Of a stretch of 64,000 bases of DNA, positions 18,996 to 63,813 are shown one piece after another. The stretch comes from Candidatus Eiseniibacteriota bacterium. Lineage in GTDB: Bacteria > Eisenbacteria > RBG-16-71-46. The notes beneath the pieces are model-generated. The model worked only from the letters and a program-made list of their open reading frames with translations. It was not told where the DNA came from and did not search any database. Position 1 is the stretch's first letter, and each line of letters begins with the position of its first letter. The position numbers and the translations under genes are program-made. The DNA lies in the NCBI GenBank assembly GCA_033853925.1, contig JAWOLC010000052.1, positions 20 through 64,019 on the forward strand. The letters run 5' to 3'.

Positions 18996-20105
18996 TCAAC
19001 GGCGCGCCCGTCCGTCCCCGAGCAGGTCCAGGTACACGCCCTCGGTGCGCCTCGCCACCGGGTCCCAGGAGTAATGGGCCCGGATGTGCTCGCGCGCCTT
19101 CACCTCGTAGCTCCGCACCAGCTCGGGGTTGCGGATGAGCATCTCCAGCTTGGCGCGCAGGTCCTCCGCGTCCCGGCTGCGGAAGGAGACGGCGCACTCC
19201 TCGGCGACCTCGAGGTTCTCGGGGATGTCCGAGACCAGCACGCAGCGGCCGTACGAGAGGGCCTCGAGCAGGGCGATGGAGAGACCTTCCATGACCGACG
19301 GCTGCACCACGAGGTAGGCGTTGCTCCACAGCTCCTCGAGGGTCTCGCCGAACACGTAGTCGAGCAGGCGGATGCGCTCGCCCTCGTAGCTCTTCAGCAG
19401 CCGGACGTAGTCCTCCGAGGCCGACGCGCCGCCCACCACGGCCAGCTTCAGCCCCGTGTCGATCTGCGAGAACGCCTCGCAGAGGAAGTGCACGCCCTTC
19501 TCGGGCACCAGCCGGCCCACGAAGAGCACGTACTGCCCGGGCACGAGCCCGAGCGGCAGGATCTTCCGCGCCGGGCGCGCGGGGACCAGGTTCGTCCCGT
19601 TGGGGATGAACACCGCCTGGGTGTGGTGGTGCTTCTCGAAGTAGTCGCGCAGCGTCTTCGACACGACGATCGTGCGGTTGGGGAAGCGCGCGGCGGGCCC
19701 TTCGCACTGCTTGAGGATCCAGGCCGCGACCCGTCCCCACTTCTCCCGCTGCCAGTCCAGCCCGTGCACGGTCACGACCGTGCGCGCCCCGCCGAGACGA
19801 GGCAGCCAGGAGAACACCGACGGCCCCAGGGCGTGGAAGTGGACGATGTCGTAGTGACGGGCCATGGCTTCGGCCGTGGACCAGGCCACGTGCGTGAAGG
19901 TGTCGAGATGCTTCGTGTGCACGCTGGGGCGGCGCAGCAGGCGCACGTTCCGGTAGGTCGTCCCCGGGGGCGTGTAGTGGAAGCGACAGTAGACGTCGAC
20001 CTGATGTCCCATGCCCGCGAGCCGCCGCGAGATCTCCTCGACGTGCCTCTCGATGCCGCCGTAGGTGGCGGGGATGCCCTTCTGCCCGATCATGGCCACC
20101 CTCAC
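18996..20105 (-). CDS. Glycosyltransferase family 4
   Basis: C-terminal part of ORF 18996..21221; GTG start at 20105 (M-RVAMIGQKGIP) after a GGGGGG SD, alternative ATG 20093; GTGA overlap with the upstream stop; EX7E-type C-terminal region. Confidence 0.8.
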   Translation of the reverse strand: MRVAMIGQKGIPATYGGIERHVEEISRRLAGMGHQVDVYCRFHYTPPGTTYRNVRLLRRPSVHTKHLDTFTHVAWSTAEAMARHYDIVHFHALGPSVFSWLPRLGGARTVVTVHGLDWQREKWGRVAAWILKQCEGPAARFPNRTIVVSKTLRDYFEKHHHTQAVFIPNGTNLVPARPARKILPLGLVPGQYVLFVGRLVPEKGVHFLCEAFSQIDTGLKLAVVGGASASEDYVRLLKSYEGERIRLLDYVFGETLEELWSNAYLVVQPSVMEGLSIALLEALSYGRCVLVSDIPENLEVAEECAVSFRSRDAEDLRAKLEMLIRNPELVRSYEVKAREHIRAHYSWDPVARRTEGVYLDLLGDGRARR

Positions 20106-21334
20106 GAGCGCACCCCCCCGGCCGCCGGCTCGGGCCGTGCCCCGCCCGGGCTCACCGCCGCGCCACCGCCCGACTGCGCCCGGAGCCTCGCGCCCAGCGC
20201 CTCGCCGAGCCTCTCGCCCAGTCGGCCCCAGGCGTACTCCGCCACCGCCCCCGGCATGGCGAGACCCCGCGCCAGCCAGCCCGCCGGGCGCGCACGCAGC
20301 GCCTCGGCCAGCTCGGGCAGCCCGGCCGTCACCACCCACGGCGCCAGCGACGCGTACCCGCGCAGGCCGAAGGGCGTCGTGACCACGGCCATTCCCGCCG
20401 CCAGGTAGGTGGGAAGCTTCACGTTGGTGCCTCCGCCGAGCGTCATGGGGTTGAGCCCCGCGTCGGCGGCGTGCAGCAACGGCGAGAGGTCGGGTGCCTC
20501 GGGCCGGGCGAGCAGCCAGCTCTCGCGCCGCCCGGCGAGGGCGCGCGTGACCGAGCCGGCCACCAGCAGGCGGAAGCCCTCGCCCGCCAGCTCGGGCAGC
20601 ACGCGGTCCATGAGCCAGGCCAGGCCGGCGCGGTTGTGCGGGAAGTCCGAGCCCACGAAGAGCGCCACGTACTCGCGCGGCCCGATGCCCAGGGCGGCGC
20701 GGGCGCGCTCCCGCTCTCCCGTCGCCGGCGGGCGGACCATGGTCTCGTCGTAGCCGTTGGGAATCACGACGAGGGTCTCGGCCGGGGCGCCGTACAGCTC
20801 GCGCACGCGAGCCGCATCCTCGTCGCCGCAGACCACGGTGAGGCCCGCGCGGCGCACGGCCCGACGCTCCAGCGCGCGCAGGCGCTCGCCCCAGAAGGCC
20901 GCGGCCGCCACCTCCGCGCGCGTCATCCGGAATTGGTCCAGCTCCACGTTGTGCGCGGTGTAGACCTTCAGCGGGGCGGGATCGGCGGCGAAGAGCCCGG
21001 TGAGGTGCAGATCGGCCAGCAGCGCGTCGGCCCGTCCGGAGAACGTCCGCGCCAGGCGGCCCGCGCTCGCCGCGTGCCCGGCGGCCACGAGGAAGAGCGG
21101 CGCCAGACGCGCCCGCTCGAGCCGCCAGGCCGCGCTCGTGTACCAGGCCTTGCGTCGCAGGATGCGCACGCCCGCGATCCGTTCCTCGCGCGCCGAGCGG
21201 TTCCGGTTCTCCACCAGGCACAGAGCCTCGACCTCGTGCCGTCGCGCCAGCCCGCGGTAGAGACCGAAGGAGCGCTGCGTGCCGCCGGAGAGCGGCGGGT
21301 GGATGTCGTTCTCGGTGGCGGCGTGGATCAGCAT
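20102..21334 (-). CDS. Glycosyltransferase (GT4-like / GT-B fold)
   Basis: 410 aa from MLIHAATENDIHPPLSGGTQR of ORF 20102..22330. Confidence 0.7.
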   Translation of the reverse strand: MLIHAATENDIHPPLSGGTQRSFGLYRGLARRHEVEALCLVENRNRSAREERIAGVRILRRKAWYTSAAWRLERARLAPLFLVAAGHAASAGRLARTFSGRADALLADLHLTGLFAADPAPLKVYTAHNVELDQFRMTRAEVAAAAFWGERLRALERRAVRRAGLTVVCGDEDAARVRELYGAPAETLVVIPNGYDETMVRPPATGERERARAALGIGPREYVALFVGSDFPHNRAGLAWLMDRVLPELAGEGFRLLVAGSVTRALAGRRESWLLARPEAPDLSPLLHAADAGLNPMTLGGGTNVKLPTYLAAGMAVVTTPFGLRGYASLAPWVVTAGLPELAEALRARPAGWLARGLAMPGAVAEYAWGRLGERLGEALGARLRAQSGGGAAVSPGGARPEPAAGGVRS

Positions 21335-22353
21335 GCCGCGTCCTCCGCGCGAGTCTCCCGCGCCGGCGCGGGGTCCGCCTGCGCCGCGGGCAGGGGACGG
21401 AGGAAGCCCACGACCATGCCGAGCCCGTTCATCGTCCAGGTCAGCAGCGAGTGGAGCGCGACCCGCGAGCTGCGCTTGCGCGCGGTCATCACGGCGAGCA
21501 CGCCGAGGGGCACCAGGACCCAGAGCGCGAGGGCGCGCTCGTCGCCCGTGGCCAGCCCGAACGCCAGGGCGCCGAGCCCCAGCAGCCACAGGCCCATCGT
21601 CGCCACGTACAGCCGCTGGCGCACGAGCAGGGTGCCGAATCCCCGCCGCCCGGCGTACAGCCTCAGCACCTGGCCCTGGCCGAAGCACAGGCCCGTGCGC
21701 CAGCGCCGCGACAGCTCGCGGAAGCTCGGCCGGGGCGCGCTCCAGTGCCGCCCCGCCCTCTGGCCGAGGCAGAGGATCCCGTAGCCGCGCCAGCGGAGCC
21801 GCATGCCCAGCTCGAAGTCCTCGTCGGAGCTGAGCCGCACGTCGTAGCCCCCGGCGGCCAGCAGGGCCTCGCGCCGGTAGAAGGCGACGTTGGCGAGATA
21901 GCCCACGGGGCGATCGCGATCCCCCGCGCCGTACATGTCGTGATGCGGGCCGGGCCGCTCGACCACCCCGTCCACGAACCACTCCTCGATACGACCGCCG
22001 ATCCCGCCCAGCTCGGCCCCCCGGGCGCCGGCCGCGATGGCCGCGTGCACCCAGGAGGCGTCCAGCTCCATGTCGGAGTCCACGAACAGCACCCACTCGC
22101 CCTCGCACGCCGCGAGCCCAGCCATGCGCCCCGCTCCCGGGGTGAGGAGCCGGAGCGGACGCCCGCTCGCGGGCTCGTAGCTCGGGAGGAAGCGCCAGCG
22201 GGCCGCGAGCCGGGGGAGCGGCTCGGGCGAGGGCGCCGCGACCTCGAGCACGCCCTGCCAGTCGTGGCCTGCCAGCGCCCGCTCGAGCGCGGCCACCGTG
22301 CGCGCGAGGAAGCGCTCCTGCCGGTAGCACGAGACCACCACCCCGATCTTCAC
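21328..22353 (-). CDS. Glycosyltransferase family 2
   Basis: GTG start (M-KIGVVVSCYRQ) after an AGGGGG SD; DSD and EDFE motifs; GTGA overlap with the upstream stop. Confidence 0.75.
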   Translation of the reverse strand: MKIGVVVSCYRQERFLARTVAALERALAGHDWQGVLEVAAPSPEPLPRLAARWRFLPSYEPASGRPLRLLTPGAGRMAGLAACEGEWVLFVDSDMELDASWVHAAIAAGARGAELGGIGGRIEEWFVDGVVERPGPHHDMYGAGDRDRPVGYLANVAFYRREALLAAGGYDVRLSSDEDFELGMRLRWRGYGILCLGQRAGRHWSAPRPSFRELSRRWRTGLCFGQGQVLRLYAGRRGFGTLLVRQRLYVATMGLWLLGLGALAFGLATGDERALALWVLVPLGVLAVMTARKRSSRVALHSLLTWTMNGLGMVVGFLRPLPAAQADPAPARETRAEDAAC

Positions 22354-23537
22354 CGTGCCCCCTGCGGCAGCTTGCGATCCTCGAGCGCGAAGCTCGCCAG
22401 GCCCAGGACCTCGTCGTACACGGACTCGAAGGCCTCCACCACCCGCGACCAGGTGAAGCTCTCGCTCACGCGAGCCGCCCCGCGCCGCCCGAGGCGCAAG
22501 GCGGCATCCGGGTGGGCGTGGAACTCCTGCAGCACCGCCGCCAGCGCGCGCGGGTCCTCCGGCGGCACGAGCCGCGCCTGCTCGCCGTCCGCGACCACCT
22601 CCGCGACGCCGCCCACGCTCGTGGCCGCCACCGGTCGCCCGCGGGCCAGCGCCTCCAGCAGCACGAGCGGCAGACCTTCCCAGCGGGAAGGCAGCACCAC
22701 GGCGTCGGCCGCGGCCAGCAGCGGGCCCAGCTCGTCCACCTGGCCGAGGAAGTGGACCCGGTCGGCGAGGCCCAGGGCGCGGGTCTTCTCCTCCAGCGCG
22801 GCGCGGCGCGTGCCTTCTCCCGCCAGGGCGGCGACGAAGTCGAGTCGGCTCGCGGCGACCTGGGCCAGCGCCTCGAGCAGCACGTCCTGCCCCTTCTGCT
22901 GCTCGAGCCGCCCCGCGCAGACCCACAGCGGGCAGCGGGGCCCGGCCCCGAGCTGCTCGCGCAGGCGGCGCGCGTCCGCCCGCTCGGCCAGCTCGTCCGG
23001 CGGGTCGGCGCCGTTGGGCACCACGCGCACCCGCGCGCGGTCCACGCCGTAGTCGCGGACGAGGGAGTCGGCGACCGCGACGCTCACCGCGGTCACGACC
23101 GCGGCCCGAGCCAGCTCGCGGCGCTTCAGCCGGGTCTGCGCCGCGGAGTTCGGCTGGCCGACGATGTGCTCGGTGACGACCAGGTGAGGGACGGCCGCCG
23201 CCCCGGCCAGGGCCGCGAGGTAGCGGTCGGCCGCCGGCCACACGTGATGGATGTGGAGCAGGTCCGGGCGCTCGCGCCCGAGCCGCCGCCACGTCGCCCA
23301 CATCCCCGCCCAGTCCCACCGCGAGTCCACCTCCGCCACGCGCTCGACGGGAAGGCCGCGCGCCGCGAGGGCCGCGGCGAACTCGTCCACGCCCGGCGCG
23401 GGCGACAGCCAGACGCGCACCGCCCAGCGGCTCGGAGGCAGACGGGTGGCCAGCTCCCACAGCACGCGCTCGGTCCCGCCGACCGTGGTTCCGCTCTCGA
23501 CCAACAGCAGCTTCAGTCGCTCCGACTCGGCTTGCAT
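22350..23537 (-). CDS. Glycosyltransferase family 4
   Basis: 395 aa from MQAESERLKLLLVESGTTVGG of ORF 22350..24659. Confidence 0.8.
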   Translation of the reverse strand: MQAESERLKLLLVESGTTVGGTERVLWELATRLPPSRWAVRVWLSPAPGVDEFAAALAARGLPVERVAEVDSRWDWAGMWATWRRLGRERPDLLHIHHVWPAADRYLAALAGAAAVPHLVVTEHIVGQPNSAAQTRLKRRELARAAVVTAVSVAVADSLVRDYGVDRARVRVVPNGADPPDELAERADARRLREQLGAGPRCPLWVCAGRLEQQKGQDVLLEALAQVAASRLDFVAALAGEGTRRAALEEKTRALGLADRVHFLGQVDELGPLLAAADAVVLPSRWEGLPLVLLEALARGRPVAATSVGGVAEVVADGEQARLVPPEDPRALAAVLQEFHAHPDAALRLGRRGAARVSESFTWSRVVEAFESVYDEVLGLASFALEDRKLPQGAR

Positions 23538-24724
23538 AGCCTCTCGTAGGCGCGCAGGAGCTCTCCCGCGGAGTGCTCCCAGGACATGGTCTCCAGAAAA
23601 CGCTGGCGGTTGTACGCCCCCATCCGCTCGCGGCGCTCGGGATCGTCGAGCAGCTCGGCGATCCGGTCCGCCAGGCGGCGCTCGTCGTTCGGCTCGGCGT
23701 AGAGGGCGCCCTCCCCCGCCGAGTAGCGGTGCTCGCGGAGGTCGTAGGCCACGATGGGGCGGCCGCAGGCCATGTACTCGAGCACCTTGTTCATGGTGGA
23801 GACGTCGTTCAGGGGATTCTTGGGATCGGGACAGACGCAGACGTCCGCCGTGGCCAGGAACCTCTCGACTTCCTCGTCGGGGATGCGGCCCGTGAACTCC
23901 ACGAACGAGGCGATGCCCAGCTCGCGCGCCAGGACCCGCAGGTCCTCGAAGGAGTCGCCCGCCCCGATCAGGGTGTAGCTCACGTCGCCCCGGCCCCGGT
24001 CGGCGAGGATGCGCGCCGCGCGCAGGAGGTGGTCCACGCCGTCCTGCGGGGCCATCACTCCCAGGTAGACGACGAGCTGCCGGCGGCCCCGCCGCAGCCG
24101 CGCATCCACGGCCCGCAGGGTGGCGAAGCGCTCCCGGCTCGGGCCGCTCCGCACGACGAAGACCCGGTCGGGCGGCACGCGCCCGCGCGTCAGCGCCACC
24201 TGCCGGTAGGACTCGTTGGTCGAGATCACCAGGTCGGCGGTGAGGAACTGCGCGCGCTCCAGCAGCCGCAGGAGCCGGTGCGGCAGCGAGCCTTCGCGCT
24301 CGAGGCCGAAGCGCGAGAGGTACAGCTCGGGACACAGGTCGTGGTGGTCGAAGACGTAGCGCTTGCCGAAGAGCTTGTACGGGGCCGCCAGGGCCCAGAA
24401 CGTGTCCGGCGGGTTCGCGGAGTGGATCACGTCGAATCCGCGCCGCGCCAGCACGACGAGCGACAGGCGCGCGGTCTGCACGAAGCAGTAGAGGAACTCC
24501 CAGACATAGGAGAGGAAGCCCCGCGTGGGCGGCGGCGCCGGGTAGCGCCAGATGTGGATGCCGTCGATGACCTCGTAGGGAGCGGTCCAGCCCTGGCCCG
24601 TCGGGCAGATGGCGGAGATCTCCCAGCCGCCCGCGCGCAGGGCGCTCAGCTCCATCCACACGCGGCGGTCGAAGGGCAGCGTCAGGTTCTCCGAGAGATG
24701 GAGGACGCTACCACACGAAGCCAT
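23513..24724 (-). CDS. Glycosyltransferase family 4
   Basis: 403 aa from MASCGSVLHLSENLT of ORF 23513..25075; GGGGAG SD. Confidence 0.8.
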   Translation of the reverse strand: MASCGSVLHLSENLTLPFDRRVWMELSALRAGGWEISAICPTGQGWTAPYEVIDGIHIWRYPAPPPTRGFLSYVWEFLYCFVQTARLSLVVLARRGFDVIHSANPPDTFWALAAPYKLFGKRYVFDHHDLCPELYLSRFGLEREGSLPHRLLRLLERAQFLTADLVISTNESYRQVALTRGRVPPDRVFVVRSGPSRERFATLRAVDARLRRGRRQLVVYLGVMAPQDGVDHLLRAARILADRGRGDVSYTLIGAGDSFEDLRVLARELGIASFVEFTGRIPDEEVERFLATADVCVCPDPKNPLNDVSTMNKVLEYMACGRPIVAYDLREHRYSAGEGALYAEPNDERRLADRIAELLDDPERRERMGAYNRQRFLETMSWEHSAGELLRAYERLCKPSRSD

Positions 24725-26024
24725 GGTACTCCCCGCGGACGACGCTGGACGGATCCACGGCATGCACGAGGTCGAGGAGCACCTGGCCGGGCTCGAGGAG
24801 CGCGCCCACCTCGCGATACTCCCGGGCGCGGTTGGCCACCACCACCACCTCGCTGCTCCGCACCACCTCGAGCAGGTCCCCGCGCAGGCGCTCGGGCAGG
24901 TAGGGGAGCTCGTCCTCGACGTAGCGCCGGTTGGCCCCCAGCACTCGGGCCATGTCCAGGTTGGGGTCGTGGAGGAGCACGCTGTAGCCCTTGCCCACGA
25001 GCGTCCCGACCACTCGCAGGATCGGGCTCTCGCGCAGATCGTCGGTCTCGGACTTGAAGGAGAGGCCGAGGACACCCACGTGCCGGCGCTTCAGGCGCTC
25101 GATGTGCTGGATCGCCTCGTTCACGTGGCGCTCGTTCGAGCGCGGGATGGCGTCGATGATCGGCAGCTCCACGCCCAGCACGCGCGCCCGTTGCTGCAGG
25201 GCCCGCACGTCCTTCGGCAGGCACGAGCCGCCGTAGGCGAAGCCCGGCTTGAGGTAGTACGGGCTCAGGTTGAGCCGCTTGTCGCGCACGAAGAGGTCCA
25301 TCACCAGATGGCTGTCGATCCCCTCACGCTTGCAGATCCGTCCGACCTCGTTGGCGAACGCGACCTTGAGGGCGTGGTAGGCGTTGTTGACGTACTTCAG
25401 GATCTCCGAGGTGCGCAGCGGGATCACCACGGTCTCGCCGCCGATGTCCGCGTAGAGACGGCGCAGGATCTCCGCGCTGCGCTCGTCGTCGGCGCCGATC
25501 ACCGTCAGCTCGGCGTCGAAGAAGTCGCGGATGGCCGTGCCCTCGCGCAGGAACTCGGGGTTGTAGGCCACGCCGAAGTCGCGGCCCGCCTTCAGCCCGG
25601 AAGCCTCCTCCAGCGCCGGAGTGAGCAGGCCCTGGACGCTCCCCGGGAGCATCGTGCTGCGCATGACGACGACGGTGTAGGTGCGCGTGGCCCGCAGGGC
25701 GTGGCCCACCTCCTGCACGGAGCGCAGCACGTGCGCGAGGTCGAGGCTGCCGTCGGGCGCGCTGGGAGTCCCCACGCAGACCAGCACCGCCTCCGCGCCG
25801 GGCAAGGCCTCGTCGATGCGGGTCGTGGCGGTGAGGTGGCCGGCCGCGCGCGCGGCGGAGATCAGCTCCCCGAGGCCGCGCTCCACGATGGGGCTGTCGC
25901 CACGCCGAATGCAGTCCACCTTGTACTCGTTCGTGTCGACGCCCACCACCTCGTGCCCCCGGCTCGCCAGGCAAGCCGAGCACACGGAGCCGACGTACCC
26001 CAGTCCCACCACCGCCACACGCAT
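24708..26024 (-). CDS. UDP-glucose/GDP-mannose 6-dehydrogenase family (nucleotide-sugar dehydrogenase)
   Basis: ORF 24708..26024; MRVAVVGLGYVGSV Rossmann fold; catalytic-cysteine region GGSCLPKD; GGGAGGTG SD. Confidence 0.9.
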   Translation of the reverse strand: MRVAVVGLGYVGSVCSACLASRGHEVVGVDTNEYKVDCIRRGDSPIVERGLGELISAARAAGHLTATTRIDEALPGAEAVLVCVGTPSAPDGSLDLAHVLRSVQEVGHALRATRTYTVVVMRSTMLPGSVQGLLTPALEEASGLKAGRDFGVAYNPEFLREGTAIRDFFDAELTVIGADDERSAEILRRLYADIGGETVVIPLRTSEILKYVNNAYHALKVAFANEVGRICKREGIDSHLVMDLFVRDKRLNLSPYYLKPGFAYGGSCLPKDVRALQQRARVLGVELPIIDAIPRSNERHVNEAIQHIERLKRRHVGVLGLSFKSETDDLRESPILRVVGTLVGKGYSVLLHDPNLDMARVLGANRRYVEDELPYLPERLRGDLLEVVRSSEVVVVANRAREYREVGALLEPGQVLLDLVHAVDPSSVVRGEYHGFVW

Positions 26025-26159
26025 GCAGTCACCTCCCGGTCAGGGAACCTTCGCCCGCGGGCCCCGGGACCGATGCCGTGCCCCGCGGTAATCCGTCCGC
26101 TCTCGCCGCTCGCGCCCCGCCGGAAGCCGGAGCTGGCGGCCGACCTGCCCGAGGCGGAA

Positions 26160-28719: not shown

Positions 28720-28755
28720 GATGCTGCTCTCTGTTGCGTTGCCCGTTAAGCAGGA

Positions 28756-28781
28756 GCCGAGGGCGTAGAAACGCCCTCGGC
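28756..28781 (-). promoter_or_regulatory. Perfect 11-bp GC-rich hairpin (GCCGAGGGCGT-ttct-ACGCCCTCGGC) in the 5' leader of the priming sugar transferase
   Basis: Inverted repeat read in sequence about 35 nt upstream of ATG 28719. Confidence 0.45.
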
Positions 28782-44661: not shown

Positions 44662-44667
44662 GCCGCC

Positions 44668-47258: not shown

Positions 47259-47302
47259 GCTTCCCCTTCGCGCCTCCGGCGGCCGAGTCCGCCCCCCGCC
47301 GC

Positions 47303-57533: not shown

Positions 57534-57661
57534 GGCCCGGCCGCCCGCGGCCGCTGGAGCCCGAGGCGCACGTGTCCTAGAATCCGACGACCGATGCGCC
57601 CTCTCGTCTCGAACGCGGCCTGCCGGTCCTGCCGGGCTTCCGGACGCCGCCCACCGCGCCC

Positions 57662-58867
57662 GTGAGCGCTCCGCCCGCTCCTCTTGCCTCCCGCGGCGGC
57701 GCTCCCGTGCGCTCCGCCTTCCTGCCCTTCTCGCGTCCCTCGATCGGCCCGCGGGAGAAGGAGCGCGCGCTCGAAGCGCTGGACTCCGGCTGGATCACGA
57801 CCGGACCCCTGGCTCAGGAGCTGGGGCGCCGCGTGGCGGCGCTCGCGGGCGCGCGCCACGGCTTGGCGGTCAACTCGGCCACGGGCGCCCTGCATCTCGC
57901 GCTCCTCGGGCTGGGGGTGGGGCCGGGGGACGAAGTCGTGACCTCGGCCTACACGTTCGTGGCCTGCGCGAACGTCATCGAGCACGTCGGCGCGCGCGTG
58001 GTCCTGGCCGACGTCGAGGCGGACACGCTCTGCATGGACCCGCGCTCGCTGGAGCGGGCGCTGGGTCCGCGCACCCGGGCGATCCTGCCGGTGGACTACG
58101 CCGGCCATCCCTGCGACCTCGAGGCCATCGGGGCCCTGGCGCGCGCCCGCGGCCTGCCCGTGATCGAGGACGCGGCGCACTCGCTGGGGGCGGCGATCGG
58201 AGAGCGTCCCGTGGGCTCCTTCTCCACGGTGACCGCCTTCTCCTTCTACGCCACGAAGAACGTCACCACCGGCGAGGGCGGGGCCGCCGTCACCGACGAC
58301 GAGGCCCTGGCCGAGCGCATGGAGCAGTACGCCCTGCACGGCATGAACCGCGACGCCTGGCGGCGCTACTCGGACACCGGCTCCTGGTACTACGAGGTCA
58401 CGACGCCGGGGTTCAAGTACAACCTGAGCGACGTGCTCGCGGCTGTCGGCCTGGCCCAGCTCGAGCGCTTCGCGGACATGCAGCGCCGGCGCCGCGAGCT
58501 GGTGGCGCGCTACGACGACGCCCTGGCGGGAATCCCCGAGGTGCGCCGGCCGCGCTCGCGCCCCGGGGTGGTGCACGCCCATCACCTGTACCCCATCGCC
58601 CTGGAGCTGGACCGCCTGAGCTGCGACCGCGCCCGCTTCATCGAGGAGCTGCGGGCGGAGAACATCGGCGCCTCCGTTCACTTCATCCCCATCCACTTCC
58701 ATCCCTACTTCCGCGACCGCCTCGGGCTCGGAGCCGGCGCGTTCCCGGTCGCCGAGGAAGCCTACCGGCGCGCGGTCACCCTGCCGCTCTTCCCCGACAT
58801 GTCGGCGCAGGACGTCGCCGACGTGGCGAGCGCCGTGGGCAAGATCGTCGCCCACTACCGCCGCTAG
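57662..58867 (+). CDS. ArnB-like sugar aminotransferase (DegT/DnrJ/EryC1 family), second copy
   Basis: ORF 57662..58867; FLPFSRPSIG...ALDSGWITTGP and FSFYATKNVTTGEGG closely match ArnB; an alternative GTG start at 57707 gives M-RSAFLPFSRP. Confidence 0.85.
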   Translation: MSAPPAPLASRGGAPVRSAFLPFSRPSIGPREKERALEALDSGWITTGPLAQELGRRVAALAGARHGLAVNSATGALHLALLGLGVGPGDEVVTSAYTFVACANVIEHVGARVVLADVEADTLCMDPRSLERALGPRTRAILPVDYAGHPCDLEAIGALARARGLPVIEDAAHSLGAAIGERPVGSFSTVTAFSFYATKNVTTGEGGAAVTDDEALAERMEQYALHGMNRDAWRRYSDTGSWYYEVTTPGFKYNLSDVLAAVGLAQLERFADMQRRRRELVARYDDALAGIPEVRRPRSRPGVVHAHHLYPIALELDRLSCDRARFIEELRAENIGASVHFIPIHFHPYFRDRLGLGAGAFPVAEEAYRRAVTLPLFPDMSAQDVADVASAVGKIVAHYRR

Positions 58868-58974
58868 CTCTCGGCCCGCCTCCTCGCCCACCGGGCCGCG
58901 CCCGACAGGACCCTTCCCCGTTCCTCCCGCTTCCGGGCCGAGCCCCGGCCGCAGGCGCGCGGGCGCGCGAGCCT

Positions 58975-59982
58975 TCACGTGGTCACCTCCTGCGCCCGGT
59001 TGAGCGAGGCCAGGGAGAGGCCCTCGCGCCGGAGGTAGTAGAGGCCCACGACCGTGACCGGCAGCCACTGCGCGGCCCAGTAGAACCACGAGAAGGAGCT
59101 GGCCACGTCGCGGCTGCGGAAGCCGAACAGCGTCAGGCCCATGACGCACGCGGCGTTCATGGTGCCCACGTAGCCCGGCGCGGCGGGGGCCATGATGGCG
59201 ATGGCGGTGATCACGAGCAGGGTGAAGCCGGCGTACCAGGGCAGGTGGATGCTCAGGGCCTCGAGGCTCCACTGCAGGGCGACGCCGAAGCAGCCGAACA
59301 TGATGAAGGAGAGCAGGAAGACCCAGAGCAGGCGGGGCACGTCGCGGAAGAGGCTCAGGCCCTCCATGAAATGGTCCAGCATGACCTCGAGCTTGGTCCG
59401 GTAGCGCACGGGGAGCCAGCGCACGAGGGCGTGGACCAGGCGGCGCGCGGCCGTGGGCGTGCGCTCGAGCAGGACGAGCACCAGCGTGAGCAGGATGGTC
59501 AGGAGGATGAGGGCGATGGCTCCGCCGCGGATGCTCCGGCCGGCCTCGCTGTGGGCCTCGATGGGGTGCACGAGGAGCGTGAGGGCCAGGATCCCCAGCA
59601 GGGTCAGCATGTCCACGGCGCGCTCGACGACCACCGTCGCCAGCACCATGGTCCCCGAGCACTTCTCGCGGCGGGCGAGGGCCCAGGCCCGCACGAACTC
59701 GCCGAGCCGCAGAGGCAGGACGTTGTTGGCCATGAAGCCGATCATGGTGGCGCTGAACAGGCTGTCCAGGCTGGCCTGGCGGGGCGCGGCCAGGAGCGAA
59801 CGCCAGCGCAGGGCCCGCAGCCAGAAGGAGAACAGGGTGAGCCCCATGACCCCGGCGAAGAGCAGCAGATTGGACTGGCGCAGCGCCTCGATCACGCGGG
59901 GAAGGCTCACGCCCCGCATGGAGTACCAGATGGCGACGATGGAGATCGCCAGGCCCAGAGCGAAGTGCAGCCCGCGCTTCAT
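58975..59982 (-). CDS. UPF0104/flippase-like integral membrane protein (lysyl-PG-synthase TM-domain-like)
   Basis: 335 aa from MKRGLHFALGLAISIVAIWY of ORF 58975..60429; 8 transmembrane helices. Confidence 0.7.
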   Translation of the reverse strand: MKRGLHFALGLAISIVAIWYSMRGVSLPRVIEALRQSNLLLFAGVMGLTLFSFWLRALRWRSLLAAPRQASLDSLFSATMIGFMANNVLPLRLGEFVRAWALARREKCSGTMVLATVVVERAVDMLTLLGILALTLLVHPIEAHSEAGRSIRGGAIALILLTILLTLVLVLLERTPTAARRLVHALVRWLPVRYRTKLEVMLDHFMEGLSLFRDVPRLLWVFLLSFIMFGCFGVALQWSLEALSIHLPWYAGFTLLVITAIAIMAPAAPGYVGTMNAACVMGLTLFGFRSRDVASSFSWFYWAAQWLPVTVVGLYYLRREGLSLASLNRAQEVTT

Positions 59983-60368
59983 CCGCGCTCCGCGGGGGCG
60001 CCCGCCGGCCCGCCCCCCCGCCGGAGATCCTCGAGCTCGCTGCGCAGCAGGGCCAGCTCCCGCGTCAGCGCGTGGTTGTCCTGTCCCAGCCGGGACAGCT
60101 TGACGGAGAGATGGAGCAGCATGGCCAGGCTGAAGCCGATGCCGAAGGCGAAGACCGTGGAGCTCGCGCCCATCATGCCCAGCGCGCGCGTGATCCAGGT
60201 GAGCAGCGGCGTCGAGAAGCCCAGCGTGGCCACGAGCACGGTGCAGATGACCCACAGGAGCGAGTACTCCTCCGAGAGCTTGCGGCGGCGCACGAGGTCC
60301 AGCACGTACAGCACGAGCAGGACCGCGCCGATCGCCATGATGACCTGGGTTCTCGAGAGAAACGTCAT
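59979..60368 (-). CDS. DUF2304-family small membrane protein
   Basis: ORF 59979..60368; three transmembrane helices and a C-terminal amphipathic helix. Confidence 0.65.
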   Translation of the reverse strand: MTFLSRTQVIMAIGAVLLVLYVLDLVRRRKLSEEYSLLWVICTVLVATLGFSTPLLTWITRALGMMGASSTVFAFGIGFSLAMLLHLSVKLSRLGQDNHALTRELALLRSELEDLRRGGGPAGAPAERG

Positions 60369-60377
60369 GGAGGCTCC

Positions 60378-61088
60378 TCAGAGCTGGGCCGGCCGCTTCA
60401 GCAGCGCCATCAGCGAGGCCAGCAGACACTTGTAGGGGTAGTACAGCGATCGCCCGAGCGTGTAGAAGGATCGTCCCGCCCGCCGCTCACGCATCTCGAC
60501 CGGCACCTCCTCGAAGCGGAATCCGCGGCGGCCCAGGGTAATGAGGAGCGGGGCGTCGGGGAAGTCCCTCGGGAAGTCCTGCTGGCACACCTCCATGACC
60601 GCCCGGGAATAGGCGCGAAAGCCGGAGGTCGTGTCGGTGATCCGCCGTCGGAGCACGGCGCTCACGAGGTGGGAGAAGAGCACCATGCCGAGCCGGCGCG
60701 CGACCGGGGCGCGGTAGCCCGTGCGCCGCAGGTAGCGGGAGCCGATGCTCACGTCACAGCGGCCGGCGGCCAGCGGCTCGACCAGGGCGCCGAGGAAGGC
60801 CGGGTCGTGCTGCCCGTCCGCGTCGAGCTGGACCCCCACGTCGTAGCCGTGCTCCACGGCCCAGCGGAAGCCGGACTGCAGGGCCCCGCCCACCCCCAGG
60901 TTGACGGCGTGCCGCAGGACGGGCGCACCGCGCTCGCGCGCGACCCGCGCCGTGGCGTCACGCGAGCCGTCGTCCACCACGAGCGCGTCCATCTGGGGCG
61001 CGAGCGCGTGCAGCTCGGCGAGCGTGGCCGGCAGGCTCTCCTGCTCGTTCAGCGCGGGAATGATCACCAGCACGCGGGGAGCGCTCAC
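60378..61088 (-). CDS. GtrB/DPM1-like polyprenyl-phosphate glycosyltransferase (GT2)
   Basis: ORF 60378..61088; VLVIIPALNEQ, VDDGSRD and DADGQH motifs. Confidence 0.85.
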   Translation of the reverse strand: MSAPRVLVIIPALNEQESLPATLAELHALAPQMDALVVDDGSRDATARVARERGAPVLRHAVNLGVGGALQSGFRWAVEHGYDVGVQLDADGQHDPAFLGALVEPLAAGRCDVSIGSRYLRRTGYRAPVARRLGMVLFSHLVSAVLRRRITDTTSGFRAYSRAVMEVCQQDFPRDFPDAPLLITLGRRGFRFEEVPVEMRERRAGRSFYTLGRSLYYPYKCLLASLMALLKRPAQL

Positions 61089-62671
61089 GAGGGTCTCCGC
61101 GACTCGGCCAGGCGGGCGAAGAAGCCCAGGAACCAGACGAGGCTGCCGCGCACGAAGCGGGTCCAGGCGGCCTCGAGCGGCACCTCCTCCAGCTTCTCCA
61201 GGTCCTGGCGCCGCACCAACCCGAAGGCGAACAGGCCCACCGCCGCGGGGAAGAGCAGGACGACATGGAAGGCGAAGAGGGCGAAGACGTGCCCGCGCAG
61301 GCTCCAGTCGACGAGCAGCGTGATCCCGACCAGGGGCAGCACCAGCCCCAGGGTCGTCAGCGTCGCCCGCGACCGCTCGCGCGCCTCCTCCGGCAGCAGG
61401 CGGGTGCCCACGAAGAGCGCGGCCGCGTAGGACACGACCGCGCCCACCAGGTTGGACCAGGCCGCGCCGATGACGCCCAGGGTGGTCACCAACAGGAAGT
61501 AGGCCCCGAACTCGCCCACGAACTTCACGACCGCCAGGACCAGCTCGATGCCGGGGCGACCCAGGGCCCGGAACAGCATGGTGAAGGGCTGCTGGGCGGT
61601 GCGGGCGAGCGGAACCAGCGCGAGGACGCGCAGCAGCGGCACCGCGGGCAGGAAGAGTCGGCTGCCGAGCACCCGGGTCAGCTCGCGGGCGAACACGAAC
61701 AGGCCCAGCGAGACGACGAAGGCCAGCGCCTGGACCAGGCGGTGCGCCTGCGAGAACGCCAGGCGCAGCCGCACCCGCTCACCCCGAGCCACGAGCCAGG
61801 TGAGCGAGGGCAGCAGCGCGGAGGGGATGGCGTTCACGAACTCGCTGAAGCGCTCGACGGTCTGGTAGGCGAAGGTGAAGTACCCCAGCAGGGTCGTGTC
61901 GAACAGGCCGCCCACGATGATCTTGCTGAGGTTCTGCCCCGAGGTGAAGGCGATGCGCCCTCCGAGCAGCGGGAGGCAGTAGGCGAACATGCCGCGGAGC
62001 AGGCCGCCCCAGGTACGCTCGGGCGCCGGCGCCTCCCGCTCCTCCGGCTGCCGCAGGATCCAGAAGCAGACCGCGGTCTGCATCAGGCCCAGGCTCACCG
62101 AGAGCCCCGCGAAGCCCACGGCCAGAGGCACCAGGCCTTGCCGGCTCCACCACAGCGCCCCCACCAGGACGGTCTTGGCCACATGGAACACCACGGCCAG
62201 GACCGAGACCCAGCGGAATTGCTGGAGGCCGAAGAGCGTGGAGCGACTCGTCGTCGCCAGGCCGTCGAAGGCCACGGTGACCACGAGGATCGGCACGAGC
62301 ACGCGCAGCTCGGGAGTCTCCCAGCGCCCGGCCAGCCAGGGGAGGATCGCCAGCAGCACCGCGCTGGCCAGCAGGCCCAGCGAGACCTTGACCGCGAGCG
62401 CCAGCACGTGGGCGCGGCGGAGGGTCACGCCCAGCCGGCGTGCCTCGTACTCGGCGGCGTAGCGCTCGAGATACATCTCGAAGTTGCCCGTCGCCGTCGC
62501 CGCCATCCCGGTGAAGGCGAGGGCCAGGGTCATGATGCCCAGCTTGGTGGGCCCCAGCCAGCGCATCAGCAGCAACGTGTAGGCGACACCGGAGAAGATC
62601 GCGGCCGCCTTCTCGACGGCCAGCCAGAACGCGCCGCGCGAGACGCTGTGCGCGATGCCGCGGGGGTTCAT
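61085..62671 (-). CDS. Wzx-type flippase (MOP superfamily), third copy
   Basis: 528 aa from MNPRGIAHSVSRGAFWLAVEKAA of ORF 61085..62998. Confidence 0.75.
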   Translation of the reverse strand: MNPRGIAHSVSRGAFWLAVEKAAAIFSGVAYTLLLMRWLGPTKLGIMTLALAFTGMAATATGNFEMYLERYAAEYEARRLGVTLRRAHVLALAVKVSLGLLASAVLLAILPWLAGRWETPELRVLVPILVVTVAFDGLATTSRSTLFGLQQFRWVSVLAVVFHVAKTVLVGALWWSRQGLVPLAVGFAGLSVSLGLMQTAVCFWILRQPEEREAPAPERTWGGLLRGMFAYCLPLLGGRIAFTSGQNLSKIIVGGLFDTTLLGYFTFAYQTVERFSEFVNAIPSALLPSLTWLVARGERVRLRLAFSQAHRLVQALAFVVSLGLFVFARELTRVLGSRLFLPAVPLLRVLALVPLARTAQQPFTMLFRALGRPGIELVLAVVKFVGEFGAYFLLVTTLGVIGAAWSNLVGAVVSYAAALFVGTRLLPEEARERSRATLTTLGLVLPLVGITLLVDWSLRGHVFALFAFHVVLLFPAAVGLFAFGLVRRQDLEKLEEVPLEAAWTRFVRGSLVWFLGFFARLAESRRPS

Positions 62672-63813
62672 CGGCCCAGCTCCGCCAGCTCGCCTTCGAG
62701 GTAGCCGCGCACGTCCTTGAGGTGGCGCAGCGCCTCGGGCAGGGGGCGGTTGGCGAAGAGCAGCGCCGCCATGTCCGCGTGCCTCGGGTCGTAGCCGTGC
62801 ATGGCCGCCAGCGGGCGCGAGCCCATGAACGAGGGCACCATCAGCACGCCCGGATCGAGCAGGAAGATGTCGTCCCCGTAATCCCGCCCGGGGAACAGCG
62901 CCCCTTCCCGCTCCAGCTCGGCATCCGTGAGCCAGTGGCCGCCGGGCTGCGCGCCCAGGGCCGCGCGCACCTCCGCCCGCGCCCCGTCCGACCGCCACCA
63001 GAAGCGCGCCAGGGTGGAGTCGAAGAAGGGGACGAAGTCACGCGGCCACCGGCAGGAGCATCTCGCCACCACGCCCATCAGGTCGACGCTGCGGCCAACC
63101 CTCACCATCCCGTGGTCGGAGAGCAGCACGAGCCGAAGGTCCTCCCCGCGCCGCTCCGCCGCCCGGACGACGCGTCCGAGCCAGGCGTCGTAGAGTGCGA
63201 GCCGCTCCCGGGCCCCGGGGCCGTCGGGGCCCTCCTGATGCAGCACGGCGTCGAGCTTGCCAGTGTAGCAGAAGAGGAAATCCTCCGGCCCGCTCTCGAG
63301 GGCTCGCTCCACCGCCGCCAGGCTCTCCGACTCCGGCATTCGCCAGCTCCAGCCCTGCCAGAGGAGGCCGAGGCGCTCCGGCGCGCTCCACAGGCTGTCG
63401 CCGGGCAGGCCGTGGGCCGCGAAGACGTCCTCGCGCTCGGCCAGGTCGAATTCCTCGAGCAGCTCGCGCGGCACCTCGTAGAGGCTGAAGTAGCCACGCA
63501 CCCCGCGCGCCACCACGAGCCGCGTGAGCAGCACCGAGAGCTTCCAGCTCCGGCGCAGGCGAGGCGGCAGCCAAGCGAGCCGGCGGAAGCCGCGGAAGGG
63601 CGTTCCGGCGCCGGTGGCCCGGCGGTACATGAGCCAGCGCCCGTGCTCGTGCGGCAGCCGGCCGGTGAACAGGGTCGGCAGCGCGCCGGCGCTGAAGCCG
63701 AGGATCGTCTCCAGCCGGCGCCGATGCGGCAGCATGCCGGCGAAGCCGGGCGAGCGGCACGCCAGCTCCCAGCCCAGGGCATCCACGAGCAGGACCACCA
63801 GCCGTCGTCTCAC
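62668..63813 (-). CDS. Alkaline-phosphatase-superfamily metalloenzyme (type I phosphodiesterase/nucleotide pyrophosphatase-like)
   Basis: From GTG 63813 (M-RRRLVVLLVDALGWE) behind a GAGGAG SD in ORF 62668..63978; metal-ligand region SDHGM. Confidence 0.7.
   Translation of the reverse strand: MRRRLVVLLVDALGWELACRSPGFAGMLPHRRRLETILGFSAGALPTLFTGRLPHEHGRWLMYRRATGAGTPFRGFRRLAWLPPRLRRSWKLSVLLTRLVVARGVRGYFSLYEVPRELLEEFDLAEREDVFAAHGLPGDSLWSAPERLGLLWQGWSWRMPESESLAAVERALESGPEDFLFCYTGKLDAVLHQEGPDGPGARERLALYDAWLGRVVRAAERRGEDLRLVLLSDHGMVRVGRSVDLMGVVARCSCRWPRDFVPFFDSTLARFWWRSDGARAEVRAALGAQPGGHWLTDAELEREGALFPGRDYGDDIFLLDPGVLMVPSFMGSRPLAAMHGYDPRHADMAALLFANRPLPEALRHLKDVRGYLEGELAELGR

Follow-up and report, generated by a model that had tools for sequence, protein, structure and literature searches.

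A 45-kb envelope-glycan locus from a probable Candidatus Eisenbacteria genome carries GT-C enzymes and a trio of genes resembling exosortase-associated families

The DNA analysed here (the window, 64,000 nucleotides) is essentially the whole of a 64,019-bp contig; because of its high G+C content (67-76%) genes were called with a codon/GC3 model, which gave 52 genes, and these were assigned to families by Pfam and NCBIfam profile searches with curated cut-offs. The searches confirmed an envelope-glycan locus of ~45 kb, extending from g18 to g51 (18996-63798), in which 33 of 34 genes belong to a glycan-related family or fold. A preliminary description had reported about 35 consecutive genes of one polysaccharide pathway; the glycan content and approximate count held up, but the run is not unbroken, as it contains g38 (44668-46857, minus), an exported S9 prolyl oligopeptidase (Peptidase_S9, 176 bits; S9_N, 172 bits; signal-peptide-like N-terminus) that has no counterpart at the syntenic loci of relatives and interrupts the cluster, probably without relation to its glycan function. 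"One pathway" was likewise an overstatement, since the genes fall into six or more transcription units and form several modules for lipid-linked sugars. The ATP-type PEPCK mentioned in the same description is g2 (PF01293, 701 bits). Among named relatives, MAGs that carry the label Candidatus Eisenbacteria are the nearest, but labels are inconsistent among related MAGs, and the source is probably an uncultured high-GC bacterium of this group.

Two sugar-nucleotide supply genes lie just to the left of g18: g15 (15829-17103, minus), an alternative bacterial GlmU for UDP-GlcNAc (TIGR03991, 296.3 bits, cut-off 225.3; NTP_transf_4 and Hexapep domains), and g17 (17795-18862, minus), a ManC-like mannose-1-phosphate guanylyltransferase for GDP-mannose (PF00483, 121.5 bits, and ManC beta-helix; TIGR01479, 262 bits, below 373). 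The locus itself opens with the GT4 glycosyltransferase g18 (18996-20093, minus; Glyco_transf_4, 85 bits; Glycos_transf_1, 81 bits), the divergent GT4 g19 (20102-21334, minus; Glyco_transf_4, 42 bits; Glyco_trans_1_4, 37 bits), the GT2 g20 (21328-22353, minus; PF00535, PF13632), with two C-terminal TM segments by hydropathy, and two further GT4 enzymes assigned by Pfam, g21 (22350-23537, minus) and g22 (23513-24724, minus), whose top NCBIfam matches are TIGR03088 (stp2; 166 bits, cut-off 409) and TIGR04063 (stp3; 115 bits, cut-off 442). The predicted UDP-sugar dehydrogenase is g23 (24708-26018, minus), a uronic-acid-forming NDP-sugar 6-dehydrogenase (TIGR03026, 396 bits, cut-off 189.8) nearest among NCBIfam models to UDP-glucose dehydrogenases (AglM 297 and TuaD 248, vs TviB 77); it is less like UDP-GlcNAc dehydrogenases and not WbpA/TviB-like. 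The priming phosphotransferase is g25 (27805-28644, minus), a small monotopic phosphoglycosyltransferase (Bac_transf, 214.6 bits; TIGR03025, 280 bits, below 295.6) with both the DE dyad (DEVPQ) and the PRP motif. Five GT4 (g18, g19, g21, g22 and g39) and six GT2 enzymes (g20, g26, g29, g32, g43 and g49) make 11, close to the "about 10" first estimated; no GT2, GT4 or DegT assignment reached an equivalog cut-off.

The middle part of the locus is rich in lipid-linked-sugar genes. Three small GT2 enzymes resemble polyprenyl-phosphate sugar synthases, in line with the three anticipated: g26 (29656-30330, plus; PF00535), a hexose synthase-like protein whose best matches, to a dolichyl-P hexose transferase model (116 bits) and to AglJ (115 bits), are both below cut-off, g32 (37034-37699, minus; PF00535, 122 bits; AglJ-like, 112 bits, below cut-off), and g49 (60378-61088, minus), which is like the polyprenyl-P-HexNAc synthase PpgS (NF058614, 96 bits, cut-off 370). 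By profile likeness we add g29 (33529-34506, plus), an ArnC-like GT2 with two C-terminal TM segments by hydropathy that resembles polyprenyl-P amino-sugar synthases (ArnC NF007986, 154.6 bits over the full length, cut-off 529). On either side of g29 are a DegT-family sugar aminotransferase, g28 (32441-33529, plus; PF01041, 327.6 bits; top match DesI-type, 304 bits, below 650), and a NeuD/PglB/VioB-family sugar N-acetyltransferase, g30 (34493-35152, plus; TIGR03570, 167.3 bits, cut-off 160.8; PglD_N). The Wzy-like protein is g31 (35604-37052, plus), a polytopic Wzy_C protein (PF04932, 48.5 bits, cut-off 31.7) that may act as polymerase, ligase or O-oligosaccharyltransferase; g31 had no NCBIfam match at all, and thus none to TIGR03097.

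The right part of the locus includes the SAM-dependent methyltransferase g42 (52891-53622, minus; Methyltransf_23, 88 bits), the GT2 g43 (53619-54599, minus; PF00535, 83.7 bits), a second DegT-family aminotransferase, PseC/ArnB-like g46 (57707-58867, plus; PF01041, 398.6 bits; PseC, 378 bits, below 423.5; ArnB, 372 bits, below 631), and the three expected Wzx flippases, all MOP/Wzx-type: WzxE-like g44 (54592-56088, minus; NF011679, 90 bits, below cut-off), with many hydrophobic segments (overlapping calls) consistent with a polytopic protein, g45 (56061-57533, minus; Polysacc_synt_3, 26.2 bits, cut-off 23; 27% identical to g44), and g50 (61085-62671, minus; Polysacc_synt, 72 bits; MOP flippase NF007773, 51 bits). 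Near g49 are g47 (58975-59982, minus), a flippase-like LPG_synthase_TM membrane protein (PF03706, 166.9 bits; TIGR00374, 81.8 bits, cut-off 43.2), and g48 (59979-60368, minus), a small membrane protein of the DUF2304 family (PF10066, 83 bits), to which Rv3632 of Mycobacterium tuberculosis presumably also belongs. The position of g48 corresponds to that of Rv3632, a small membrane protein that partners PpgS; in M. tuberculosis the GT2 PpgS, Rv3632 and the GT-C Rv3779 handle polyprenyl-P-GalNAc (PMC3485146). The locus ends with g51 (62668-63798, minus), an alkaline-phosphatase-superfamily phosphodiesterase lacking TM segments (PF01663, 55.5 bits, cut-off 23) whose position is kept in relatives, and the cluster continues past the contig edge at g52 (63810-63998, minus), the C-terminal 62 residues of a conserved protein cut by the contig end, which match the C-termini of L019:1208-2377 and L018:1-828. 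At L019 the genes after this match, which start two genes away from the g51 ortholog, encode a BY-kinase-like ATPase and a protein resembling chain-length determinants, and by synteny such a pair probably lies just past the contig end here.

Five GT-C glycosyltransferases are spread through the locus. Two were recognised by Pfam PMT_2, g24 (26160-27695, minus; PF13231, 34.2 bits, cut-off 26.1; multiple TM segments) and g27 (30623-32092, plus; PF13231, 44.9 bits, same cut-off), in keeping with the GT-C enzymes already suspected, and three are added here: g35 (39543-41573, plus), with an AglB-like C-terminal domain, its paralog g37 (42604-44661, plus; 41% identity over 650 residues; weak DUF6541 match, 21 bits), and g41 (50315-52894, minus), which carries a C-terminal beta-sandwich besides its AglB-like domain. 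For g35 and g41 high-confidence models with GT-C folds were obtained, and the two represent two undescribed GT-C families; g37, which has no counterpart at the syntenic loci, is a lineage-specific extra copy of g35.

Three genes near these enzymes had been taken as the trio that accompanies exosortase loci. They are g33 (38043-39008, plus), a FemAB-like (Acetyltransf_6) putative aminoacyl transferase (PF13480, 51 bits) that is 38% identical to the XrtA-type FemAB of D. vulgaris; g36 (41570-42433, plus), a CE4 polysaccharide deacetylase with DUF3473 (PF01522, 75 bits; PF11959, 98 bits) and an HGMDH His-His motif; and g40 (48409-50328, minus), a glutamine-dependent AsnB-type amidotransferase and putative uronamide synthase (PF00733, 328.9 bits; GATase_7; generic TIGR01536, 482 bits, cut-off 267) with Cys2 and an SGGLDS motif. 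Catalytic motifs are intact, and none of the three has a signal peptide; g33 and g36 are assigned to the cytoplasm. Their top full-length NCBIfam matches are indeed XrtA/PEP-CTERM models, but each falls under its cut-off (TIGR03019, 230.1 bits, below 260.35; TIGR03006, 218.3, below 276.2; TIGR03108, 563.8, below 816.9), while a genuine XrtA-type control scored 394 to 564 bits (394.5 for the XrtA-type FemAB of locus L017), far over the cut-off. By their profile scores the three are near-misses of exosortase-type families; they look more like a sugar-tailoring module tied to the two undescribed GT-C families. The corresponding VimA-like (g33), VimE-like (g36) and WbpS-like (g40) assignments point to such a module: VimE, VimA and WbpS yield 2-N-seryl/glycyl-3-N-acetyl-glucuronamide, and the likeness of g33 to VimA runs through a reported shared similarity to TIGR03019 (PMC7468200). 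As this trio is found with T9SS as well, and the vimA/vimE pair occurs beside Wbp-pathway genes also in species believed by those authors to lack exosortases (PMC7468200), the trio alone does not predict an exosortase.

The genomic setting agrees with this. The genes overlap closely (g34/g35 and g35/g36 by 4 nt, g40/g41 by 14 nt), and two cassettes, FemAB-acyltransferase-GT-C-deacetylase and GT4-AsnB-GT-C, recur in relatives on contigs of 175 kb to 1.16 Mb, where the trio genes adjoin GT-C enzymes, not XrtA. The FemAB-like gene is always succeeded there by a counterpart of the hexapeptide-repeat acyltransferase g34 (39046-39546, plus; Hexapep, Hexapep_2), and the GT4 g39 (47303-48412, minus; Pfam), downstream of AsnB, adjoins AsnB in relatives too. 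A Rosetta-stone link is provided by P0143, in which a g35-type GT-C and a GT2 domain form one protein, with the deacetylase and DUF2304 coming next; at L011 the separate genes stand in the order GT-C, GT2, deacetylase, DUF2304. As the preliminary description had said, exosortase, Wza/Wzc and a PEP-CTERM substrate are not in the window by profile and seed searches. Together the window and 17 related loci (337 kb) contain no exosortase, EpsI or PEP-CTERM protein, and no XrtA-type export, ATPase or TIGR03016 outer-membrane gene; the search was sensitive enough, as two exosortase seeds recovered each other at E=2e-24. No syntenic relative, one covering 31 kb around the cassette, shows an exosortase, and the window lacks the XrtA-associated chain-length determinant, tyrosine kinase and TIGR03013 glycosyltransferase (g25 scored 155 bits, below 393).

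These absences count against the view that the locus supplies accessory genes to an XrtA/PEP-CTERM system whose exosortase, substrates and Wza/Wzc lie elsewhere in the genome, with the trio making the acceptor onto which the exosortase would attach proteins. Canonical XrtA loci do hold a deacetylase-FemAB-GT-XrtA-amidotransferase arrangement, and the stp2 and stp3 matches of g21 and g22, together with the weak matches of the L019 BY-kinase-like and chain-length-determinant-like genes to XrtA-associated versions, point the same way as the trio's best matches; since all of these scores are under curated cut-offs, those of g21 and g22 far under, and the relatives pair the trio with GT-C enzymes, we consider this view improbable. 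Protein glycosylation, in which g35, g37 and g41 as oligosaccharyltransferase-like enzymes and/or a PglL-type g31 would place a glycan or single modified sugars on envelope or S-layer proteins rather than build a polysaccharide, draws on the match of the C-terminal GT-C domains to the AglB-S2 globular domain, on the archaeal AglJ and dolichyl-P-hexose transferase matches of the small GT2s, and on the fact that Wzy_C also occurs in PglL-type enzymes. It is unlikely, as g35, g37 and g41 lack a WWDxG motif, the GT-C enzymes match ArnT and AftA, whose acceptors are lipids or glycans, just as well as they match oligosaccharyltransferases, and the locus encodes no candidate acceptor protein.

We give similarly little credence to a T9SS-type anchor glycan, i.e., a Wbp/Vim-like "linking sugar" in an anionic polysaccharide to which a PorU-like sortase would amide-bond secreted proteins, as in Porphyromonas and Tannerella. 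VimA, VimE and WbpS do match the TIGR03019, CE4 and TIGR03108 families, the window has a uronic-acid dehydrogenase, DegT aminotransferases and hexapeptide acetyltransferases, and at L019 Gfo/Idh/MocA (WbpB-like) and Epimerase_2 (WbpI-like) genes lie beside the g41 ortholog. However, the window and related loci have no T9SS component or CTD-bearing cargo, a literature search found no Eisenbacteria-T9SS link, and nothing in the P. gingivalis pathway, in its described form, parallels the tight coupling to GT-C enzymes; moreover, the window has no WbpB-type oxidoreductase and g23 is not WbpA/TviB-like.

With moderate confidence we therefore favor a Wzx/Wzy-type polysaccharide with polyprenyl-phosphate/GT-C decoration branches, one of them a VimE/VimA/WbpS-like tailoring module. 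The GT2/deacetylase/GT-C layout follows the same logic as ArnC (GT2), ArnD (CE4 deformylase) and ArnT (GT-C), ArnC being the best match of g29 and ArnT that of g35. The repeat unit would be primed by g25, built on its lipid by g18-g22 and the dehydrogenase g23, carried out by the flippases g44, g45 and g50, and polymerised or ligated by g31. Single sugars would be put on polyprenyl phosphate by g26, g29, g32 and g49, the last acting with g48 and g47, and moved onto the glycan in the periplasm by g24, g27, g35, g37 and g41, although lipid A or protein may be the GT-C acceptor instead. As g23 resembles UDP-glucose dehydrogenases more than UDP-GlcNAc dehydrogenases and the window has no WbpB-type oxidoreductase, the sugar that is tailored need not be the Wbp product. 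By analogy with VimE, VimA and WbpS, the tailoring module, presumably translationally coupled to the g35/g41-type GT-C enzymes, would have g36 strip the N-acetyl group from an amino sugar in the cytoplasm, g33 re-acylate the freed amine, probably with an amino acid, and g40 turn a uronic carboxylate into an amide; these three would act on nucleotide- or lipid-linked sugars, whose final acceptor may be the glycan.

The combination of a FemAB-like protein, a CE4/DUF3473 deacetylase and an AsnB-type amidotransferase is widely taken as a marker of exosortase systems, and the preliminary description had proposed that the three such proteins encoded here (g33, g36 and g40 among our called genes, g1–g52, numbered left to right) be scored with the corresponding TIGRFAM models. 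Each found its best NCBIfam match, over the full length, in an XrtA-associated model; all three nevertheless stayed under the curated cut-offs in a consistent near-miss, with g33 scoring 230.1 bits against TIGR03019 (cut-off 260.35), g36 scoring 218.3 bits against TIGR03006 (cut-off 276.2) and g40 scoring 563.8 bits against TIGR03108 (cut-off 816.9), so that g40 cleared only the generic TIGR01536. Among the neighboring enzymes, the GT4 glycosyltransferases g21 and g22 reached 166 bits (stp2) and 115 bits (stp3), respectively, and the priming phosphoglycosyltransferase g25 reached 155 bits on TIGR03013 versus a cut-off of 393. These scores were calibrated on a genuine XrtA-type locus, L017, whose FemAB (394.5 bits), stp1 (455.7 bits) and stp3 (564.1 bits) proteins all exceed their cut-offs. 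The amidotransferase of that same locus (L017 4256–6106) matched TIGR03108 from residue 58 with 324.6 against 816.9, and therefore sub-cut-off amidotransferases exist even in true XrtA contexts. The catalytic motifs of the window proteins are kept (the CE4 His-His in g36, Cys2 and the SGGLDS PP-loop in g40), and no signal peptide was found in g33, g36 or g40. As a separate observation, an EPS locus on the Chelatococcus daeguensis plasmid pTAD1 (NZ_CP018096.1, 74365–115306) carries a deacetylase and a FemAB annotated as XrtA-system members, hence above cut-off, and the plasmid gene table, which is incomplete, lists no exosortase in the 20 kb to the left or to the right.

We compared the window with two canonical XrtA loci, on the D. 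vulgaris plasmid pDV (L006) and on a Vibrio alfacsensis plasmid (L020), which contain PEP-CTERM proteins, a TIGR03013 glycosyltransferase, an export protein, a chain-length determinant, a tyrosine kinase, an ATPase, a TIGR03016 outer-membrane protein, EpsI, and a deacetylase-FemAB-GT-exosortase-amidotransferase run. Like these loci, the window combines FemAB, a CE4/DUF3473 deacetylase, an AsnB amidotransferase and GT4 enzymes in one EPS-type locus; unlike them, its trio is sub-cut-off, it is without exosortase, EpsI, PEP-CTERM, TIGR03013 glycosyltransferase, export, ATPase and outer-membrane proteins, and polytopic GT-C enzymes rather than XrtA adjoin its FemAB/deacetylase and amidotransferase genes. 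When the L006 and L020 proteins were searched with phmmer against all ORFs of at least 60 residues in the window and related loci (337 kb in total), the only meaningful matches were to the deacetylase, the FemAB-like protein, the amidotransferase and the phosphoglycosyltransferase domain. The exosortases, export protein, chain-length determinant and O-antigen-ligase-like protein had no match at E ≤ 1 over the full 337 kb, the two exosortase queries finding nothing at that level in the window or in any of 17 related loci, and EpsI, the ATPase, the outer-membrane protein and the PEP-CTERM proteins had none in the window and the five related loci L001–L005; beyond these, the search gave only a borderline kinase match, in the related locus L019 (E = 3e-4), and weak matches of ligase-like and stp1-like kind. 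The exosortase negative carries weight because the two exosortases, from different phyla, detect each other at E = 2e-24. The exosortase models TIGR02602, TIGR03109, TIGR04178 and PF09721 likewise had no match among the polytopic proteins of the window (E ≤ 10), which bears out the earlier remark that no exosortase is in view, and the exosortase Pfam families did not occur in the long-contig contexts of relatives, one of which is covered over 31 kb by L004 and L018 jointly. No ORF of at least 60 residues in the window and L001–L005 had a C-terminus of PEP-TM-basic form, nor was anything there similar to the D. vulgaris PEP-CTERM proteins, and the XrtA accessory set (the TIGR03007 chain-length determinant, TIGR03018 kinase, TIGR03015 ATPase, TIGR03016 and the export protein) was not encountered in the window. 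Our literature search found nothing on Eisenbacteria with an exosortase or a T9SS.

The supercluster in which the trio sits is real and of a conventional kind, namely a large envelope-glycan locus. As the window has 67–76% G+C and shadow frames dominate its raw ORF lists, we trained a codon/GC3 log-odds model on the window for gene calling, which gave 52 non-overlapping genes. The glycan run proposed at 18996–63813 corresponds to 34 of these, g18 (18996–20093, minus strand) through g51 (62668–63798, minus strand), and Pfam and NCBIfam scans confirmed almost every item that had been listed for it: five GT4 (g18, g19, g21, g22, g39) and six GT2 enzymes (g20, g26, g29, g32, g43, g49); g23, an NDP-sugar dehydrogenase; g25, a priming phosphoglycosyltransferase of the small type whose DE dyad is intact; the three MOP/Wzx-type flippases g44, g45 and g50; a single Wzy_C protein, g31; the DegT aminotransferases g28 and g46; the hexapeptide acyltransferases g30 and g34; the trio itself (FemAB-like g33, CE4 deacetylase with DUF3473 g36, AsnB-type g40); and g24 and g27, the two of the five GT-C enzymes of the locus that Pfam recognizes. 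The assignment of all these genes to one pathway was too strong, as the run comprises at least six transcription units. The Wzx/Wzy core set is present (priming enzyme g25, flippases g44/g45/g50, and g31 as polymerase or ligase); no PCP (Wzc/Wzz) or OPX (Wza) exporter was found in the window, and a Wza-like gene was seen nowhere in the window and related loci. To the left lies a housekeeping flank with ATP-type PEPCK, alkaline phosphatase, an NfeD/SPFH (Band 7) gene pair (6092–7416), GTP cyclohydrolase I, a single tRNA-Gly(GCC) on the minus strand (11276–11352), aspartokinase and glycogen synthase, and the sugar theme reaches slightly left of the run, to an alternative GlmU (g15) and a ManC-like gene (g17). 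Between these two, g16 (17106–17498) encodes a small SPOR-domain protein (PF05036, 22 bits) that would be expected from this domain to bind peptidoglycan. A Mycobacterium-type reading was not supported, the PEPCK being ATP-type and the relatives being MAGs labelled Eisenbacteria and other taxa, none of them Mycobacterium-type. To the right, the cluster continues past the end of the sequence; the window is essentially one entire contig, as both g35 and g41 have an NCBI entry of 100% identity on a contig of 64,019 bp.

Two further features of the run deserve mention. The divergent genes g25 and g26 (GT2) are separated by a noncoding gap of ~1 kb (28645–29655), in which a credible ORF, an Rfam match and a sigma-70-like promoter were all sought and none found; its only repeats were a direct one of 15 nt (29129, 29190) and an inverted one of 14 nt (29242–29278). 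This gap may be a divergent regulatory region and the regulatory hub of the locus. At 42604–46857 the polytopic g37 converges with g38, which encodes an exported prolyl oligopeptidase of family S9 and is clearly foreign to the glycan run; the deacetylase lies on one side of the pair and the GT4-AsnB block on the other. Both genes are missing from all syntenic relatives and thus represent an insertion or duplication specific to this lineage. Some S9 enzymes function as transpeptidases; we found no link between g38 and the glycan genes, and g38 was set aside as a sortase-like partner, there being no copy in any syntenic relative.

The three GT-C enzymes that escape Pfam, the polytopic g35, g37 and g41, matched nothing in Pfam and NCBIfam other than a sub-threshold DUF6541, and had no PDB sequence match, searches with g35 and g41 returning only noise. 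All three have the GT-C membrane fold, the best fold match of g35 being ArnT, and g37 is a 41%-identical paralog of g35. Invariant in g35 are the motif SDxWxH (D151, W153, H155), which g37 shares, together with DK (300–301), H348 and K480, and in g41 the motif SDxPDH (D153, P155, D156, H157); the aspartates D151 of g35 and D153/D156 of g41 lie in loop-helix segments following the N-terminal TM bundle and are candidate counterparts of the catalytic Asp of ArnT or PglB. An exhaustive profile search for the g35 family yielded 1439 representatives at 50% clustering (333 with E ≤ 1e-30), and members only ~20% identical still keep D145 and H149; none of the latter reached a Pfam cut-off, showing only weak matches to DUF2298, DUF6798 and DUF6541. 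As even distant members miss every Pfam cut-off, the g35 and g41 types are two undescribed GT-C families without Pfam or NCBIfam coverage. They carry an AglB-like C-terminal domain; in contrast to the GT66 enzymes AglB, STT3 and PglB, to which they are 9–16% identical, they have the SDxWxH and SDxPDH motifs, no WWDxG and no Pfam/NCBIfam match. Neither WW[DE] nor WxDxG was found in g35, g37 or g41, and as WWDxG is missing, canonical oligosaccharyltransferases were ruled out; divergent exosortases and Wzy/ligases were also rejected for these proteins, given the GT-C fold and the lack of any exosortase HMM or phmmer match.

Homologs to g33 (the best 79% identical), g35 and g41 come nearly all from soil and sediment metagenomes, and those with names are mostly "MAG: Candidatus Eisenbacteria bacterium", with a few Limnocylindria, Udaeobacter, Terriglobales and "delta proteobacterium"; among species representatives the best FemAB match was 72% identical. 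The window is likely of Eisenbacteria-like origin. The nine loci L008–L016 carry the same cassette under taxon labels that conflict across MAG catalogues (Eisenbacteria, Terriglobales, Udaeobacter, "delta proteobacterium"), and the "delta proteobacterium" MAGs L012 and L014–L016 have FemAB-AcT-deacetylase without GT-C. Long-contig contexts and a phmmer synteny map revealed two conserved blocks. One reads Wzy_C-(AsnB)-FemAB-hexapeptide AcT-[~675-aa unknown]-deacetylase, with GT4-(GT4)-AsnB-[~855-aa unknown] on the opposite strand; the other is the entire right arm, g52-g51-g50-g49-g48-g47-g46-g45-(g44)-g41, and g42 and g43 have no counterparts in L018 or L019. Past the equivalent of the window end, beyond the g52 ortholog, L019 has a gene for a BY-kinase-like ATPase followed by the C-terminus of a chain-length-determinant-like protein, both weak and sub-cut-off matches; on the strength of these two genes, a split Wzc-like co-polymerase probably lies just past the end of our contig. 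Just downstream of its g41 ortholog (12692–18452), L019 also has an Epimerase_2 (UDP-GlcNAc 2-epimerase-like) gene and a 716-aa ADH/Gfo-Idh-MocA fusion, i.e., WbpI- and WbpB-like functions missing from the window, followed by a heparinase II/III-like gene. On a 1.16-Mb contig, the 924-aa protein P0143 (L005 10001–12775) unites a g35-type GT-C and a GT2 domain in one fused chain, and the deacetylase and DUF2304 genes come next, in a compact version of g23–g36 of the window; in L011 the same parts occur as separate adjacent genes.

The Wbp/Vim pathway of P. gingivalis and T. forsythia offers the best experimental precedent for the trio. In it, the CE4 protein VimE strips the 2-N-acetyl group, VimA, which matches TIGR03019, sets the added serine or glycine, and the AsnB-like WbpS forms the uronamide (PMC7468200). 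The same study noted the trio in XrtA loci and found vimA/vimE next to a full set of Wbp-pathway genes in species of Pseudomonas, Aeromonas and Vibrio that, as far as its authors know, have no exosortase (PMC7468200). The window resembles this pathway in having a putative VimA-like type (g33, TIGR03019-like over its full length, TIGR03019 being the link to VimA in PMC7468200), VimE-like CE4 and WbpS-like AsnB types at the family level (g36, PF01522 with His-His; g40, TIGR03108-like with Cys2 and PP-loop), a sugar dehydrogenase, DegT-family aminotransferases as putative WbpE counterparts (g28, g46) and hexapeptide acetyltransferases as putative WbpD counterparts (g30, g34). It differs in that the dehydrogenase g23 best matches UDP-Glc dehydrogenases (AglM 297, TviB 77) and does not qualify as WbpA, that no Pfam match to Gfo/Idh/MocA (WbpB) occurs among g1–g6 and g8–g51, and that neither a PorU/T9SS sortase nor CTD cargo was found in the window. 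It differs further in the company of the module, which shares operons with GT-C and PpgS-like GT2/DUF2304 genes, an arrangement suggestive of lipid-linked intermediates.

That arrangement recalls two other systems. The Arn (lipid A Ara4N) pathway employs ArnC (GT2), the CE4 deformylase ArnD and ArnT (GT-C) in series. The window shares a logic with this pathway and with the mycobacterial PpgS/Rv3632/Rv3779 galactosamine pathway: an N-acyl amino sugar is loaded on polyprenyl phosphate by a GT2, deacylated by a CE4 enzyme, moved by a flippase and transferred by a GT-C. By best match, g29 corresponds to ArnC, g49 to PpgS and, by fold, g35 to ArnT, with g48 being DUF2304. In M. tuberculosis, the GT2 PpgS and the small membrane protein Rv3632 make polyprenyl-P-GalNAc, and the GT-C Rv3779 uses this product (PMC3485146), and g49, g48 and g47 resemble this module. 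The window departs from both systems in its sub-equivalog matches, in the extra FemAB-like and AsnB-like steps and in the undescribed families of its GT-C enzymes.

Beyond the observed gene content, folds, synteny and absence of XrtA parts, we infer a chemistry, a carrier (nucleotide or lipid) and an acceptor. The trio would tailor an amino or uronic sugar in three steps, removal of the N-acetyl group, aminoacylation of the nitrogen and amidation of the carboxyl group; we place these steps at the cytoplasmic face because g33, g36 and g40 lack signal peptides and retain their catalytic motifs. The new GT-C enzymes would draw on lipid-linked monosaccharide donors, and a GT-C would hand the product, in the periplasm, to the polysaccharide made by Wzx/Wzy; it is the translational coupling seen in gene overlaps (4 nt between g34 and g35, 4 nt between g35 and g36, 14 nt between g40 and g41), the P0143 fusion and the known paradigms that tie these enzymes to the trio and to such donors. 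In its fullest form, with an N-aminoacyl uronamide sugar made on polyprenyl phosphate and transferred in the periplasm by GT-C, either as a free-amine handle to which a transpeptidase would attach proteins covalently or directly onto proteins, and with the trio tied to neither exosortase nor T9SS, this scheme is speculative and rather unlikely; if true, it would add a third, GT-C-based context for "linking sugar" chemistry.

Three other readings concern the ultimate acceptor, and all are compatible with the proposed enzymology. The exosortase model of the preliminary description, in which the trio with its XrtA-type best matches would serve an exosortase, has lost most of its specific support with the sub-cut-off scores and the XrtA parts missing from the window and related loci, and we regard it as unlikely. 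Chemically, a T9SS-type anchor glycan is an attractive idea, but the window and related loci gave no sign of a T9SS, and we consider it quite unlikely. A literal Wbp pathway is opposed by the missing WbpB and the resemblance of g23 to UDP-glucose dehydrogenase; L019, for its part, does have WbpB-like and WbpI-like genes beside its g41 ortholog. Protein glycosylation by OST-like GT-C enzymes, in keeping with their AglB-like C-terminal domain, or by the Wzy_C protein, is to our minds improbable to the same degree as the T9SS-type glycan.

What is new in this locus is that the "exosortase trio" occurs, in the window and related loci, as a conserved, sub-cut-off sister cassette without the exosortase hallmark, and that this cassette is tied physically, and by fusion evolutionarily, to two GT-C families without a description in any database. 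A cassette lacking exosortase hallmarks in a poorly known phylum supports the view, which comes from studies of T9SS, that the three genes form a portable module for sugar tailoring and not an exosortase accessory. In addition, the locus defines two sizeable GT-C families outside Pfam and NCBIfam, and the fusion and operon structure link these to polyprenyl-phosphate sugar synthases and tailoring enzymes, providing a concrete biochemical hypothesis.
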